From the sequence record PX418923.1: 50,008 nt of DNA. One strand, written 5' to 3'. Shown here piece by piece: positions 42,591 to 47,944 of the stretch. Below the pieces are notes generated by a model that did not search any database, had not been told where the DNA came from, and saw nothing but the letters and a program-made list of their open reading frames with translations. The first letter of the stretch is position 1; each line of letters begins with the position of its first letter. The translations under genes and the position numbers were made by a program. This stretch comes from a phage.

Positions 42591-43203
42591 AGTACATATC
42601 ATCAACAGTAGTGACGAATACGTGCACATGTTTGGTAAGATGGGTTGGGAAGTTGTTGGCATCAAAGACTTCTTCAATGCTGATCTCATCCAATTTACTG
42701 GCGGTTCCGACGTAACTCCCATGCTGTATGGGGAAAGCCTGCACCCCAAGACTTATTGCAGCCAACGTCGTGATTTGGAAGAAGCAGGCTACTTTGCATT
42801 TGCTCAACGTTGCTCCATTCCTATGGCTGGCCTCTGTCGAGGCGGTCAGTTCCTTAACGTTATGAATGGTGGTAAGATGTTCCAACATGTTGATGGGCAT
42901 GCCACTGGTCGAAACCACATTCTGTTTGATCGGTTCACTAACAAGTCTTGTAATGTAACCTCTACTCACCATCAAATGATGATCCCACATTATAGTGGTG
43001 AAGTCATTGCAATCGCACATGAGGCTAAAGTCAAGGAAAGTTATGGCACTACCTTCCCCAGCGGTGGTGATGATGTAGAGGTAGTATATTATGACAAAAC
43101 CAAATCGTTGTGCTTCCAACCACACCCCGAGTTTTATCACGCTGACAGTACTCGTGACTATTACTTTGAACTTCTCGAACGTTATTTGGGGCTGTCCGCA
43201 TAA
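42583..43203 (+). CDS. Class-I glutamine amidotransferase-like / peptidase C26 (gamma-glutamyl hydrolase-like) protein
   Basis: Catalytic Cys motif G-L-C-R-G-G-Q and C-terminal HPE; GTG start with GGAGGAAG RBS. Confidence 0.6.
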   Translation: MPKVHIINSSDEYVHMFGKMGWEVVGIKDFFNADLIQFTGGSDVTPMLYGESLHPKTYCSQRRDLEEAGYFAFAQRCSIPMAGLCRGGQFLNVMNGGKMFQHVDGHATGRNHILFDRFTNKSCNVTSTHHQMMIPHYSGEVIAIAHEAKVKESYGTTFPSGGDDVEVVYYDKTKSLCFQPHPEFYHADSTRDYYFELLERYLGLSA

Positions 43204-43254
43204 GCTCGAATAATGCGATGGGCAATGGTTTGAATTTCTGCTAGAAAAATTTTT
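43202..43254 (+). promoter_or_regulatory. Conserved repeated element, copy 3 (AAGCTCGAATAATGCGATGGGCAATGG...GAATTTCTGCTAGAAAAATTTTT)
   Basis: Lies between the C26-like gene stop and the GGAGG RBS of the next gene. Confidence 0.4.
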
Positions 43255-43266
43255 GGAGGTTTATTT

Positions 43267-43458
43267 ATGCACAGTGGTTGTGATGGGGAACACACCCTAT
43301 TACTATTGTGTAGGCAATGTCAGTGCAAGTTTTATTGGGGCACTGTCTATCATGGAATCAGTGAGCTAACTAAATGTCCAAACATTGTTTGCAAAGCGAG
43401 CGGAAGTAAATCTTTCATAATTCAACAGAGAATCCATAACGGAACTTTGGTTAAATAA
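43267..43458 (+). CDS. Small Cys-rich zinc-ribbon protein
   Basis: CDGEH...CRQCQC...CPNIVC; GGAGG RBS. Confidence 0.45.
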   Translation: MHSGCDGEHTLLLLCRQCQCKFYWGTVYHGISELTKCPNIVCKASGSKSFIIQQRIHNGTLVK

Positions 43459-43493
43459 CTAAGCAACCTCGTCGAGGTTCGGAGGATAAAATT

Positions 43494-44825
43494 ATTTGCG
43501 GTCTAGTTGGCGTTGCTGGCGGTATTACTTTTAACTTGGAAAAGGTTTTTAAGAACCTTCTTCAACTCGATACTATTCGTGGTCCTCATAGCACTGGTGT
43601 GGCTATGGTTCGAACTAATGGTGACAATAAAACTGTAAAGAAGTTGGGCACCCCTTGGGAAGGGCTGTTCGACAGTAAGGATTTTGAAGAGTATCTGAAA
43701 GGTGGCTCTTTTAACGTATTGCTTGGACACAATCGGTGGGCGACTAAAGGTAAAATCAATGCCAAGAACGCTCACCCGTTTGACTTCGATACTTTGGTAG
43801 GCGCTCATAACGGTACTCTTCGATCTGTTCGTGATCTGGACGATCATGAGAAGTTTGAGGTAGATAGTGAAAATATCTATCATCATATGGAACGTAATGG
43901 TGTTGCAGACACTATCAAACTCCTTGATGGTGCGTTCGCACTAACTTGGTATAACAAAGAAGAGAGTACGATTAATTTCATTCGCAACAATGAACGTCCT
44001 CTTTACTATTGCTTGACCGAGGATAGGAAAGCCATCATCTGGGCAAGTGAAGATTGGATGATTGAAGTTGCTTGTGGTATGGCTGGTCAGAAGTTTGGTG
44101 AAATTTTCTCTCTTCCGATTGGTGTTCACTTCACTTTCGACATTACACTTGGCTCACCTTACCAGTACAAACCTCTGGAAAAATGCCGTACTCGAAAGTT
44201 GGAGCTGCGTCAAAATTTTCAGAAAGCCGTAGTGGCATCTACTACCTCTACGGCTACTAACAACGTATTCAAGTCGTCCGAGTCTTCGGTGGGAAAGTCC
44301 GTCCCGGCAGCAGGTTTCATGGAGTACCAGAGGTTTGTAGGAAAGTCGTGCGACTTTTACGTCGACAGGGTAGCGACTAACAACTATAACCAAAAGTATC
44401 TGCAATGCTGGGCTTGTGACAACGACTTGGTCTCTATTCGTTGTTATGCCGGTGAAGGTAGTGAGCTTTGGATGAAGATGGTTAACTCTGCTAACTTCTT
44501 CAGAGCGCATGTTAAATCTTTCAGCACTTCTGAAAAAGGTTATTTGACTATTGATCTTCGCACAGTAGAAGAGCTAGCGGAGAAGGAAGAAGAGGAACCT
44601 ACAGAACAAACTGATGATACTCCGCCTGAAATGTATGTTGTGTATGGGGGAGAAGTGGTAAGTCGTGTTGTCTACGAGCAACGCACGGAGAAATGTTGTT
44701 CATGGTGCAGCAGTCCTGTAGATGAGACAGACGCAAATGATCTTGTGTGGCTTGATAAACACACTTTTGTTTGCGGTAGTTGTAAAGAGTTTTCTGAAGT
44801 TAAACAATATCTTAAACTTGCATAG
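43494..44825 (+). CDS. Class-II glutamine amidotransferase (Ntn-hydrolase) domain protein with Cys-rich C-terminal domain; probable ATT start
   Basis: (M)CGLVGVAGG N-terminus, HNRWATKG, GAHNGTL, DSE, LDGAFAL; GGAGGA RBS 7 nt before ATT 43494; no synthetase domain. Confidence 0.65.
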   Translation: MCGLVGVAGGITFNLEKVFKNLLQLDTIRGPHSTGVAMVRTNGDNKTVKKLGTPWEGLFDSKDFEEYLKGGSFNVLLGHNRWATKGKINAKNAHPFDFDTLVGAHNGTLRSVRDLDDHEKFEVDSENIYHHMERNGVADTIKLLDGAFALTWYNKEESTINFIRNNERPLYYCLTEDRKAIIWASEDWMIEVACGMAGQKFGEIFSLPIGVHFTFDITLGSPYQYKPLEKCRTRKLELRQNFQKAVVASTTSTATNNVFKSSESSVGKSVPAAGFMEYQRFVGKSCDFYVDRVATNNYNQKYLQCWACDNDLVSIRCYAGEGSELWMKMVNSANFFRAHVKSFSTSEKGYLTIDLRTVEELAEKEEEEPTEQTDDTPPEMYVVYGGEVVSRVVYEQRTEKCCSWCSSPVDETDANDLVWLDKHTFVCGSCKEFSEVKQYLKLA

Positions 44826-44834
44826 GTAAATAAA

Positions 44835-45698
44835 ATGAGTCTGAACATTCTGGTTGGCGCTGATCCGGAAATCTTCATGATGAAAGACGGCAAATACGTA
44901 TCAGCACACGGTGCTATTCCTGGCAATAAGAAGGAACCTTTCAAAGTTGAGAAAGGTGCTGTCCAAGTAGATGGCATGGCATTGGAGTTTAACATTGATC
45001 CTGCTAAAAACGAAAAAGAGTTCGTACGTAACCTCACTACGGTAATGTCTACCCTCAAGGGTATGGTGCCTGGATTCGAATTGAATCCCTCTCCGGTTGC
45101 TGAATTCGGTTTCGATTATATCAAGGGTCAACCTGATGAAGCGAAGGAGCTTGGGTGTGAGCCTGACTTCAACGCTTATGAAAACGGTGCAGCTAATCCT
45201 CGTCCCAATGCTGAAGTAGACTTCCGTACTGGTGCTGGTCACGTACACATTGGTTGGGGAAATGACATTGATATCAGTGATCCTGACCACATTGAGGCGT
45301 GCTGCATGGCAGCAAAACAACTCGACTATTACCTTGGGTTGCCCAGCCTTCTTTATGATAAGCAAGTTAAGCGTCGTACTCTTTATGGTGCTATGGGAGC
45401 ATTCCGTCCTAAGCCGTATGGTGTCGAGTACCGAGTGTTGTCCAACGCTTGGTTGAAAGATGAAGCACTTATGAAGTGGGTATTTAAAAACACTGTGCTT
45501 GGCATCAAAAAACTCCTTGAGGGTAAGCCTGCTTACGATAAGGACTATGATACCACTGTTAGGGAGCTTGGCGTGTCAGCTAAACCTAATGAATACCACC
45601 TAGCGTGGCTCCTTGGTAAAAACAAAATCCCTATGCCGCCTGGATTTGTATTGGTTGAAGGATGCTTCCCTGGGGATTATGTTATCAAGCAGGTGTAA
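44835..45698 (+). CDS. Amidoligase-like protein (glutamine synthetase-like COOH-NH2 ligase), paralog A
   Basis: GADPEIF, GAGHVHIGWG and R...YGAMGAFRPKPYGVEYR motifs, parallel to the protein at 46245. Confidence 0.5.
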   Translation: MSLNILVGADPEIFMMKDGKYVSAHGAIPGNKKEPFKVEKGAVQVDGMALEFNIDPAKNEKEFVRNLTTVMSTLKGMVPGFELNPSPVAEFGFDYIKGQPDEAKELGCEPDFNAYENGAANPRPNAEVDFRTGAGHVHIGWGNDIDISDPDHIEACCMAAKQLDYYLGLPSLLYDKQVKRRTLYGAMGAFRPKPYGVEYRVLSNAWLKDEALMKWVFKNTVLGIKKLLEGKPAYDKDYDTTVRELGVSAKPNEYHLAWLLGKNKIPMPPGFVLVEGCFPGDYVIKQV

Positions 45699-45699
45699 C

Positions 45700-46248
45700 A
45701 TGAATATGTATGGTGATGATTGGCAATATGCAGACTCCCGACTTAACAATACTATTGTTAGGCATGAAGGTAAGGGAGTCCTTGTTAACAAGGTGATGAA
45801 GAAAGGAGCCCTGATCACTTCTCTTCGAGGTGGTGACGGTAATGTTGTTAACCTTGATGACCTAGACTTGACTCCTGTAAAGCTAGGTTTTGCCAATATT
45901 GGCAATACAATCTCTTACCTTACTCGTATGCCAATGCGTAGGGATTGGAGACAAGGGCTCCGAGTTGGGAACTTCACTTCAGTATACGGCACTCCTGCCG
46001 GTCTAGTTAACTACAATGCGTTAGCAGATACTATTGAAGGCATCTACCCAACTTTGCAAGAGTGTGTTGATTCGTCAGCTAGAGTATTGAAAGCTTGGTG
46101 TAGGGAGTGGGCTGTCGGTAATAGTAAGTTGAAAAATAACAGACCACTCATTTACAAAAACCTAATTGTTGGTTGTGTGAGAGACGGTAATCCAGAACTG
46201 AGCGGTGAGTTCATGTTTCTTCGAGAAGCACTACAGGAGGTGCTATGA
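45700..46248 (+). CDS. Hypothetical protein within the amidoligase cluster
   Basis: ATG right after upstream stop; overlaps next start. Confidence 0.45.
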
Positions 46249-47192
46249 AAACTGTAATGCAGTGGTTCGGCATTCAACTACCTACCAAGGGTGACGTTGG
46301 TGTCGAGATTGAGGTGGAGGGCAAGAATTTGCCCAAAGCTTTTGATAGATATTGGCGAGTAGAGGCTGACGGTTCTCTTCGTGGTGAAGATAACGCAGAG
46401 TATGTCCTAGAGAAGCCTATGACTCTTCGTCAAGTTAAGCTTGCCCTAAGTCACCTTAACATGCAATACAAGAAGAACAATTCAGTTGTTGATGACACGG
46501 TACGTGCTGGTGTTCATGTACATATCAACGTTCAACAACTGAACATTGTAGAGCTTTATAACTTTATGACGCTCTACCTTACTCTTGAGGAACTTTTGGT
46601 TAAGTTCTGTGGTCCATATCGAGAAGGTAATTTGTTCTGCCTCCGTGCTTGTGATGCAGAATGGTTGTTGTTCAGACTGTCAGAGGCAGCACGGACTCGA
46701 CAGTTTAGACGCATTCTGACTGATGATAATCTTCGCTACGGCTCTATGAACGTTAAGGCTTTGGGTACGTATGGTAGTCTTGAGTTCCGTGCTATGCGTG
46801 GCACTCGTGATTTAAACCTCATTCATAAGTGGGCTAATATTCTTGTTGATCTTCGTGAAGCTGCTAAGAAGTTTACTGATCCTAAAGATATTATCAACAG
46901 CTATTCTGAGGGTGATTATGTAGCGTTCCTTAATAAATGTCTTGGTGAGCATGTAGAGTTGTTTAAGGACTACGACAACGTACCCAAGATGTTGAACGAT
47001 GGTATGCGACGAGCACAGGACATTGCTTTCTGTTGTGATTGGCAACAGTTCTTCCAAGAAGAAATTGTTCCGCCTGCCCCAGCACCGAGAAAGAAAGTTC
47101 TTAACTATGATTTTGATCCCATTGCGTTCTTTGGTGAAGTACCAAAAGAAATCTTCCCACCGATTTGGGTTGAAGAAGGAGTGCCGTTCTAA
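46245..47192 (+). CDS. Amidoligase (glutamine synthetase-like COOH-NH2 ligase), paralog B
   Basis: [42 protein letters not shown] motifs; GGAGG RBS. Confidence 0.55.
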
Positions 47193-47944
47193 TGTTTATC
47201 TATGCGTACAATAATGCCAGCAAGGCTGGTAAGCAAATCAGGGACATGCTTAATGTAAAATTTATTAAGCATAAAAACTCTAAGTTCAAAGGCTCCCCAG
47301 ATAAAGTGGTGATTAACTGGGGTAGTAGCAATCTTCCAGAAGAAGTTCTTAAGTGTACGGTTGTTAATGCCTCTGTAGCCGTCTCCAGGGCCGCTAACAA
47401 GCGTTCTTTCTTCGAGGCAATGGTAGGGCATGCCCGTACACCAGAATTCACTACAGACAAAGCTGAGGCCCTTAAATGGGTGGATGGTGGAAACACTGTA
47501 GTGTGTCGTACTTTGCTAAATGCAAACAGTGGTAAGGGTATTGTACTTGTAGGGCCAGGTGATGGTGAGCTTGTCGATGCACCTCTGTACACTAAGTATG
47601 TGCCCAAGAAACAAGAGTGGCGAATCCATGTGTTCCGTGGTGAGTGTGTAGACATTCAAAGAAAAGCACGTAAGAAAGATGTTCCTGATGAAGAAGTGAA
47701 CTGGAAGATTAGGAACATTGGTGGTGGTTTTATCTTTGCACGCAACGAAGGAATTAAACCTCATGAAGACATTATTGAACAAGCTATTAAGGCTGTTGAA
47801 GCCTGTGGACTTGACTTCGGCGCAGCAGACGTCATCTTCAATGAGAAAGAACAGAAAGCCTACGTGTTGGAAGTCAATACAGCTCCGGGAGTTGATGGCA
47901 CAACGCTCGAAGGTTATGTCAAAAGATTTAAGGAGTTGAAATGA
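47192..47944 (+). CDS. ATP-grasp ligase (RimK-like)
   Basis: WRIHVFRGE and C-terminal YVLEVNTAPG motifs. Confidence 0.65.
   Translation: MFIYAYNNASKAGKQIRDMLNVKFIKHKNSKFKGSPDKVVINWGSSNLPEEVLKCTVVNASVAVSRAANKRSFFEAMVGHARTPEFTTDKAEALKWVDGGNTVVCRTLLNANSGKGIVLVGPGDGELVDAPLYTKYVPKKQEWRIHVFRGECVDIQRKARKKDVPDEEVNWKIRNIGGGFIFARNEGIKPHEDIIEQAIKAVEACGLDFGAADVIFNEKEQKAYVLEVNTAPGVDGTTLEGYVKRFKELK

Follow-up and report, generated by a model that had tools for sequence, protein, structure and literature searches.

ATT or ATC as probable start codon before the catalytic cysteine of a phage class-II amidotransferase, and its association with a hairpin beside the Shine-Dalgarno sequence

Class-II glutamine amidotransferases carry a catalytic cysteine as N-terminal nucleophile (Ntn) that must be residue 1 of the active enzyme. 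The gene for such an enzyme in the window analyzed here, the whole 50,008-nt stretch of phage DNA in sequence record PX418923.1, raises the question of where its translation begins: The sole ATG, GTG, or TTG start listed for its reading frame is TTG 43536 (product of 429 residues), downstream of the cysteine codon. The window belongs to a Pseudomonas phage of the genus Paundecimvirus (Zobellviridae) and is 96% identical to phage vB_PaeP_FBPa8 over the region examined. An earlier reading of the letters alone (hereafter the sequence-only reading) had proposed initiation at the ATT at position 43494, with autoproteolysis of a longer precursor as an alternative. We conclude that translation very probably begins at ATT 43494, which would make Cys residue 1, because relatives have ATG, TTG, or ATC at the homologous codon and because the set of codons found directly before the Cys is restricted. 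Around 37% of the amidotransferase loci in this family use ATT or ATC at that position. The elements of the start region, all on the plus strand, are as follows:

43452-43454, plus strand: TAA, the upstream stop codon in the amidotransferase frame
43465-43479, plus strand: stem-loop AACCTC-GTC-GAGGTT, 1 nt 5' of the Shine-Dalgarno (SD) sequence, its 3' end 14 nt before ATT 43494
43481-43486, plus strand: SD sequence GGAGGA (duplex with the anti-SD of -9.5 kcal/mol)
43491-43493, plus strand: ATT, codon -2, a second near-cognate codon and probably spacer
43494-43496, plus strand: ATT, the proposed initiation codon and codon -1 relative to the catalytic Cys; homologous codon ATG, TTG, or ATC in relatives
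43494-44825, plus strand: complete gene for the class-II (Ntn) glutamine amidotransferase (443 codons with the initiator counted), whose product ends in a four-Cys domain
43496-43534, plus strand: out-of-frame TTG overlapping ATT-TGC, with a 12-codon open reading frame (ORF) that ends at TAA 43532-43534
43497-43499, plus strand: TGC, the catalytic N-terminal nucleophile Cys, invariant in a 37-sequence alignment and matching Cys1 of GlmS and PurF
43536-43538, plus strand: TTG, the first canonical in-frame start, from which GenBank relatives begin with a product that lacks the Cys

A start region without a canonical codon ahead of the cysteine

The letters at 43480-43540 are cGGAGGATAAAATTATTTGCGGTCTAGTTGGCGTTGCTGGCGGTATTACTTTTAACTTGG, and the amidotransferase frame near the Cys reads GAG GAT AAA ATT(43491) ATT(43494) TGC(43497) GGT CTA GTT GGC GTT GCT GGC GGT, that is, ..EDKII followed by CGLVGVAGG. 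The sequence-only reading had stated that no ATG, GTG, or TTG lies in frame ahead of TTG 43536, and the listed starts and our reading of the codons agree: None occurs among the 14 codons that are open between TAA 43452-43454 and the Cys codon at 43497 (ATA ACT AAG CAA CCT CGT CGA GGT TCG GAG GAT AAA ATT ATT). Reading the codons from 43497 onward likewise confirmed that a start at TTG 43536 would drop the CGLVGVAGG N-terminus. The claim that the frame is open upstream back to a TAA stood in part, in that the frame is indeed open; the TAA inside GGAGGATAAA (43487-43489) is out of frame, and the true stop is TAA 43452-43454. The strong ribosome-binding site that had been placed 7 nt before ATT 43494 is present as GGAGGA at 43481-43486. 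From GGAGG, a spacer of 8 nt leads to ATT 43494 (aligned spacing 16, a workable SD distance), and ATT 43491 follows 5 nt past GGAGG (aligned spacing 13).

This layout of SD sequence, ATH codon, and Cys codon is present again in independent phages and is therefore more than chance. No other real gene in the window has such a start arrangement, and three further candidates are shadow ORFs opposite a block of minus-strand genes. The window contains no tRNA genes and thus no phage-encoded initiator tRNA, and a scan of 42900-43700 for promoters and terminators returned nothing convincing on the plus strand ahead of the amidotransferase gene. Frameshifting or coupling from an upstream ORF of 63 residues was considered and rejected, given that this ORF lies in another frame, stops 35 nt short of the ATT, and is missing from PA11-type phages.

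The cysteine is the nucleophile of an Ntn glutaminase domain

From the Cys onward, the product comprises 442 residues and matches the Pfam families GATase_6 (E = 3e-16) and GATase_7 as well as PHROG 18128, whose profile position 2 is the Cys of the window. In a profile of 37 homologues, the Cys aligns to residue 1 of both E. coli PurF (1ecb) and the mature glutaminase domain of GlmS (1xff), while the glutamine-site residues R29, G30, H105, N106, G107, and D124 are invariant and in register with the RG and HNG motifs of GlmS; C2, G3, G6, and G9 are invariant family-wide in the same alignment. The AlphaFold2 model (predicted local distance difference test, pLDDT, of 87) is best matched in Foldseek by the GlmS glutaminase domain 1xff (E = 4e-13, template modeling score 0.71 over the target) and PurF, with asparagine synthetase and EgtC also found, and as modeled the protein has the four-layer alpha-beta-beta-alpha glutaminase fold of Ntn hydrolases. 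Because the profile aligns it with Cys1 of GlmS and PurF and the model matches the Ntn glutaminase fold, the Cys encoded by TGC 43497 is the Ntn nucleophile.

These results bear directly on the start from which several close relatives are annotated. Records of FBPa8, K4, Ty, and IME180 begin at the TTG 43536 codon (and that of O4 at a still later ATG), which would yield a Cys-less, catalytically dead protein without CGLVGVAGGITFN. This TTG is the sole canonical start in frame and the one that automatic gene callers choose, but no SD sequence lies ahead of it, its Leu is not conserved in homologues, the family-wide invariance of C2, G3, G6, and G9 speaks against it, and relatives with a canonical start begin with M-C-G. 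Furthermore, the 13 codons from the Cys to TTG 43536 differ between the window and PA11 by 7 synonymous and 2 conservative changes, so that this stretch appears to be translated and under purifying selection. We therefore consider initiation at TTG 43536 highly improbable.

The C-terminal part of the protein (44300-44825, residues ~270-443) forms a separate, confidently modeled domain after a disordered linker (residues 242-268). It is unlike the synthase domains of GlmS, PurF, and AsnB, and its four invariant cysteines (C402, C405, C427, and C430) suggest a zinc ribbon.

The codon before the cysteine in relatives and across the family

Near-identical relatives carry ATG or TTG exactly at the position of ATT 43494, which supports the initiation site favored by the sequence-only reading. 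The L091 contig encodes a 99%-identical protein and reads GGAGGTTTATTT-ATG-TGT at the ATT-TGC position of the window, and phages PA11, PP21, and TC6 read GGAGGTGCAAT-TTG-TGT, with PA11 gp004 (NC_007808) annotated from that TTG. Phages K4, O4, Ty, and IME180 share window-like upstream sequence, but with ATT-ATC-TGT, and the annotated start in the metagenome-assembled, 98%-identical NCBI contig QFPP01000006 is the identical ATT. The sequence-only reading had also suggested aligning homologues to look for conserved M-C-G starts: Around 73 of the 120 best database homologues are called M-C-G, and the remainder of these 120 are called either truncated or with short "extensions" ending in Ile-Cys that read as translated SD sequence.

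For a census across the family, the codon before the Cys was read directly in 80 IMG/VR loci and GenBank relatives, giving 83 distinct loci with ATG (40), TTG (11), GTG (1), ATT (21), or ATC (10). No other codon, including ATA and CTG, was found at this position among the 83 loci. The downstream gene for a COOH-NH2 ligase served as control. In 69 of 69 loci, it offers a canonical start immediately ahead of the conserved ILVGxDPE motif, compared with ATT or ATC in 31 of 78 amidotransferase loci (31/78 versus 0/69, Fisher p = 1.3e-10).

The same loci inform on a longer precursor that would start further upstream, e.g., at ATA 43455, and be autoprocessed like the propeptide of Bacillus subtilis PurF. 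In favor of such a precursor, there are 14 open codons ahead of the Cys, and propeptides are established for some class-II amidotransferases, but K4-type phages have an in-frame TGA within this stretch, seven codons before the Cys and with no canonical start in between, which largely refutes this reading. Among the ATT/ATC loci analyzed, 22 of 31 likewise lack any canonical start in the open frame ahead of the Cys, and in-frame stops 4-7 codons before it occur in many loci, among them ATT/ATC loci other than those of K4-type phages. A propeptide predicts arbitrary residues before the Cys, and a precursor is disfavored because none are seen, only start-capable codons; what would be the extension is a hairpin with an SD sequence that is conserved as nucleotides rather than as peptide. 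In B. subtilis PurF and glutamate synthase, Cys1 must be exposed just as here, but these enzymes combine a canonical start with an autoprocessed propeptide, whereas the window has no canonical upstream start and its relatives have stops in that place. The alternative offered by the sequence-only reading thus receives almost no credence from us.

A closer competitor is the first of the two tandem ATT codons, at 43491, which would give fMet-Ile-Cys (fMet, formylmethionine) with a two-residue leader that Ntn-type autoprocessing or a peptidase would later cut off. In its favor, the aligned spacing of 13 after GGAGG is the usual textbook optimum (PMC9841429), and codon -2 is ATT or ATC in 19 of 31 ATT/ATC loci versus 7 of 40 ATG loci, an unexplained enrichment of tandem ATY-ATY. 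On the other side, codon -2 is no start codon in 12 ATT/ATC loci (AAA, CAA, ACC, CCC, GCT, or ACT) with equal geometry from the SD sequence to codon -1, the ATG or TTG of relatives stands at -1 and never at -2, and methionine aminopeptidase, by its established specificity, leaves Met-Ile uncleaved. ATT, ATA, or ATC at -2 also precede the start in 13 of 40 ATG loci. Because of these codons ahead of ATG and the non-start codons in the 12 ATT/ATC loci, codon -2 appears to behave as an AT-rich spacer, and initiation at ATT 43491 is improbable in our view.

ATT 43494 as the start fits a pattern that reaches well beyond the closest relatives. Near-identical proteins occur in opposite start states in three pairs (the window and L091, L068 and L069, L076 and L080), and in each the whole upstream segment differs, not a single base. 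Among 16 cultured phages of other genera that were sampled, 13 have ATG, CVT22 has TTG, Klyazma has ATC (annotated truncated), and SU10 has ATT. In phiEco32, the type phage of Kuravirus, phi32_83 is annotated with an ATT-TGT start; the amidotransferase region is shared by 97 Kuravirus records, many of which leave it unannotated.

ATT and ATC starts come with stronger SD sequences, longer spacing, and an adjacent hairpin

We compared the initiation regions of ATT/ATC loci and canonical loci, counting loci as independent and ignoring phylogeny throughout. Mean SD duplex energy is -8.3 kcal/mol in ATT/ATC loci versus -6.5 kcal/mol in ATG loci (p = 1e-4), and the mode of aligned spacing is 15-16 versus 13-15 (p = 5e-4). 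The exact arrangement of GGAGG, 8 nt, and ATH recurs in at least 9 lineages besides the window (L014, L025, L033, L061 with a CGAGG core, L067, L080, L082, Klyazma, and the K4 clade). By a hand count from the codon lists, an A at position -3 is found in ~87% of ATT/ATC-start loci and 52% of ATG-start loci.

The stem-loop of the window folds at -5.8 kcal/mol. When hairpins were required to have at least 5 bp, at least 2 G-C pairs, a loop of 3-6 nt, and an end 11-18 nt before the start, 17 of 33 ATT/ATC loci but 0 of 66 canonical loci qualified (p = 2e-10), compared with on average 1.5 and at most 5 qualifying hairpins in shuffled upstream sequences. In five further ATT/ATC loci, a hairpin ends at a distance of 19-27 nt from the start, and no canonical locus has one closer than 20 nt. 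Across lineages, the pairing of the stem is kept while its sequence is not (e.g., AAAGCC/GGCTTT, GAGGTC/GACCTC, GCCCT/AGGGC, GTAGCC/GGCTAC, and AAGGG/CCCTT in phiEco32). Counted on a covariance-model alignment that is itself fitted to the model's structure, so that the figures lean toward that structure, 95.8% of cells are paired versus 57.5% in shuffles, all 6 pairs have changed on both sides, and pairing falls to 22-54% when partner columns are slid.

Searched over ~374 kb, the covariance model gave significant matches where the amidotransferase gene starts in ATT/ATC loci, apart from a relic copy in L042 and a weak partial match inside the L014 coding region (E = 2.5). Weak local matches (E of at least 0.6) fell on the canonical-start genes of L099, L100, and L091 and ~100 nt upstream of the L037 start. 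Rfam families matched the hairpin only as noise (E > 4). A window-wide scan for a hairpin followed by an SD sequence found 28 sites versus 17-37 in shuffles, so the module is no repeated genome element. Mimicry of the anti-SD by a hairpin arm (AACCUC in the window) was rejected because it fails in most other loci.

Two variants of the module deserve separate mention. In the ATT-start loci L056, L065, L063, L074, L028, and L062, the end of the hairpin is 19-23 nt upstream of the start; a GGAT or GGAA element comes next, ahead of GGAGA-TTTTATY-ATT, and this may be a bipartite or duplicated SD sequence. In L042 (IMGVR_UViG_3300008050_000183, positions 1254-1520), a relic of hairpin, SD sequence, and ATC-TGT (CAGCT-ATA-AGCTG, TAAGGAAC, ATC TGT GGA TTA GTA GGT GTT GG) now opens an unrelated ORF of ~70 residues, and the amidotransferase restarts ~210 nt downstream (GAGGA...TTG TGT GGA TTA GTG GGT GT). 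These letters suggest an insertion at the far 5' end of the gene by which the first seven codons were duplicated.

A rival account of these data would be that, in a gene of which traces suffice, ATG has decayed almost neutrally to ATT or ATC, with the hairpin having nothing to do with translation and being instead a weak terminator, a processing site, or a 5' transcript stabilizer. In keeping with it, the start state is almost without phylogenetic signal (on a neighbor-joining tree of N-terminal domains, canonical versus ATT/ATC needs at least 20 changes over 78 tips, and 24.6 are expected at random), one Kuravirus record labels the hairpin region a terminator, and 5' hairpins that stabilize phage mRNAs are known (PMC8948821). 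Decay should not, however, spare the neighboring ligase gene or leave ATA and all other one-step mutants of ATG absent, nor does it fit that ATT and ATC are accompanied by stronger SD sequences, fixed extended spacing, and a hairpin at a fixed 12-15 nt that is never seen in canonical loci; a terminator is further disfavored by the lack of a T-run after the hairpin of the window. Neutral decay thus seems unlikely to us.

Beyond the cautions attached to the group comparisons and to the covariation figures, three observations weigh against the view that ATT 43494 starts translation as part of a dedicated module. Around half of the ATT/ATC loci have no SD-abutting hairpin under the criteria used, the 121 nt at 43440-43560 fold with no unusual stability relative to shuffled sequence (z = -0.5), and the overlapping TTG 43496, inherently stronger than ATT as a start codon, could draw off many ribosomes.

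The overlapping out-of-frame start codon

The overlap is inherent to this kind of start, as any Met-Cys start gives an overlapping NTG codon at offset +2, which is TTG 43496 in the window; in the surveyed loci, the third base of the start codon makes it GTG, TTG, or CTG. Extended spacing favors the 5' member of overlapping start codons (PMC9841429). The absence of ATA from the census fits this picture because an out-of-frame ATG would arise from ATA-TGY. The length of the out-of-frame ORF was considered as an explanation and rejected, being 8-12 codons in all start-codon classes without difference.

Two further observations concern the overlap. The 12-codon ORF from TTG 43496 stops at TAA 43532-43534, one base before the in-frame TTG 43536, where termination-reinitiation could in principle give a Cys-less isoform. 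In the census, the alternative canonical start TTG (11) far outnumbers GTG (1), the opposite of the usual bacterial ratio; GTG-TGY would yield an ambiguous GUGUG context (PMC9841429).

A proposed mechanism for initiation at ATT 43494

Starting from the position of the N-terminus as given by comparison with relatives, the codon set at -1, the specificity to this gene, and the association with SD sequence and hairpin, we infer how fMet is decoded and removed, how strongly the gene is expressed, and what the hairpin contributes. GGAGGA (43481-43486) would position the ribosome such that the initiator fMet-tRNA reads the near-cognate AUU 43494. Deformylase and methionine aminopeptidase, which removes Met before Cys, would then take off the fMet, Cys being a permitted second residue. 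This would leave the Cys (TGC 43497) as residue 1, providing both the nucleophile and the free alpha-amine of an Ntn class-II glutaminase.

In this proposal, the ATT would not be a decayed ATG but part of an initiation module that recurs in the family, composed in order of a 5-7 bp stem-loop, a linker of 0-2 nt, a strong SD sequence, a longer-than-usual spacer, AUU or AUC, and UGY for Cys. The module alternates with a plain 5' end of SD sequence and ATG or TTG, and in those close pairs that were examined, the entire upstream segment is exchanged along with the switch. Initiation factor 3 (IF3) discriminates against AUU and AUC, and our best reading of the module is that of a deliberately weak, possibly regulated initiation site, which may set a low and possibly factor-sensitive (IF3-type) level of glutaminase synthesis. 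The strong SD sequence and the adjacent hairpin might partly compensate for, or control, the weak codon, and the hairpin could stack on or insulate the SD helix and thereby hold the 30S subunit long enough for near-cognate selection; other possible roles are those of an mRNA 5' stabilizer, a processing site, a weak terminator, or a protein operator. In E. coli, AUU, AUC, AUA, and CUG initiate at ~1-2% of AUG, and a Met N-terminus was found by mass spectrometry for AUC, with AUU outside the codons so tested (10.1101/063800). Our literature search on hairpin-assisted non-AUG initiation found nothing specific. More tentatively, the unit of hairpin, SD sequence, and AUU/AUC may be an ancient, selectively maintained translational control element of a widespread phage cluster of amidoligase and amidotransferase genes that, as the AUU of infC does, ties glutaminase synthesis to initiation fidelity (IF3 level, guanosine tetraphosphate, or temperature) or to a hairpin-binding factor during infection, with ATA excluded for the out-of-frame ATG that it would create.

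Comparison with known systems

Non-AUG initiation at AUU has a well-known bacterial example in infC, the gene for IF3, which IF3 autoregulates. E. coli infC and pcnB are the two confirmed AUU-initiated genes (10.1101/063800), and the likeness to the phage gene lies in an evolutionarily conserved AUU start read by initiator tRNA. In infC and pcnB, weak, IF3-discriminated initiation sets or regulates the level of the product. For the phage gene, by contrast, enzyme chemistry fixes where translation must begin, since the Cys has to end up as residue 1; close relatives switch between AUU or AUC and AUG or UUG; and an SD-abutting hairpin accompanies the weak codon.

The closest likeness is to phi32_83 of phiEco32 and gp085 of SU10, annotated in Kuravirus as "L-glutamine-D-fructose-6-phosphate aminotransferase". 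These are homologous class-II amidotransferases in the same amidoligase cluster with an annotated ATT directly before TGT; upstream of this ATT lie a hairpin (AAGGG-TTTA-CCCTT), an SD-like GGTGGA, and a spacer of 8 nt. They differ in protein sequence (~33% identity over the N-terminal domain), in being longer, and in their host.

E. coli GlmS, PurF, AsnB, and YafJ share with the phage protein the fold and a catalytic Cys1 exposed by removal of Met, and with their AUG-UGY starts they face the same unavoidable second NTG at offset +2, the AUGUG problem (PMC9841429). Unlike the phage gene, they start at AUG, and the phage protein continues into a linker and the domain with four invariant cysteines, with no sugar isomerase or phosphoribosyltransferase domain.

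As for the hairpin, the translational operators and 5' leader hairpins of phage T4 gene 43 and gene 32 place a small hairpin directly 5' of the SD sequence within the ribosome footprint. The hairpin of the amidotransferase gene resembles them in this placement, and hairpin stabilizers are discussed in PMC8948821; it differs in that only its pairing is conserved while the stem sequence varies.

Annotation and significance

An ATT start that would expose Cys1 is not new in this family, given that it is annotated in phiEco32, SU10, and one metagenome-assembled contig. To our knowledge, the use of ATT or ATC by ~37% of loci at a chemically fixed position and the tie to a conserved hairpin-SD module have not been described before. 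Compared with the sequence-only reading, what is added is a family-wide phenomenon, the existing annotation in phiEco32 and SU10, and the conserved hairpin beside the SD sequence.

The ATT 43494 start would correct the annotation of the nearest relatives of the window phage. ON857932, MW929175, OQ555403, NC_031274, MF788075, OP125547, and many Kuravirus records have a downstream TTG or ATG start without the catalytic Cys or leave the 5' part featureless, and the full-length call is present in PA11, phiEco32, SU10, and QFPP01000006. In FBPa8, K4, O4, Ty, IME180, Klyazma, and many Kuravirus records, a predicted active enzyme is thus misread as a fragment or left out, and around one-third of the genes in the family would be beyond correct calling by tools limited to ATG, GTG, and TTG.

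More than 30 lineages form a natural series with AUU or AUC in place of AUG where enzyme chemistry sets the position, and SD strength, spacing, and the adjacent hairpin shift along with the start codon. This is a rare data set on how weak starts can be made to work. Following infC and pcnB, the amidotransferase would be a second case, open to testing, in which an AUU start has been maintained in evolution.

Gene neighborhood

The amidotransferase gene is clustered with genes for four other enzymes, a combination for which the synthesis or attachment of peptide-like modifications, perhaps on host proteins, has been predicted (PMC4431377):

42583-43203, plus strand: upstream gene, Peptidase_C26 / class-I amidotransferase-like
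44835-45698, plus strand: downstream gene, phiEco32-like COOH-NH2 ligase, the start-codon control
46245-47192, plus strand: Amidoligase_2 gene
47192-47944, plus strand: R2K-clade ATP-grasp gene

Between the ligase and Amidoligase_2 genes, a TTG-started ORF at 45613-46248 overlaps the end of the ligase gene. Its match to PHROG 11055 begins at ATG 45703, which is probably the true start of this gene.

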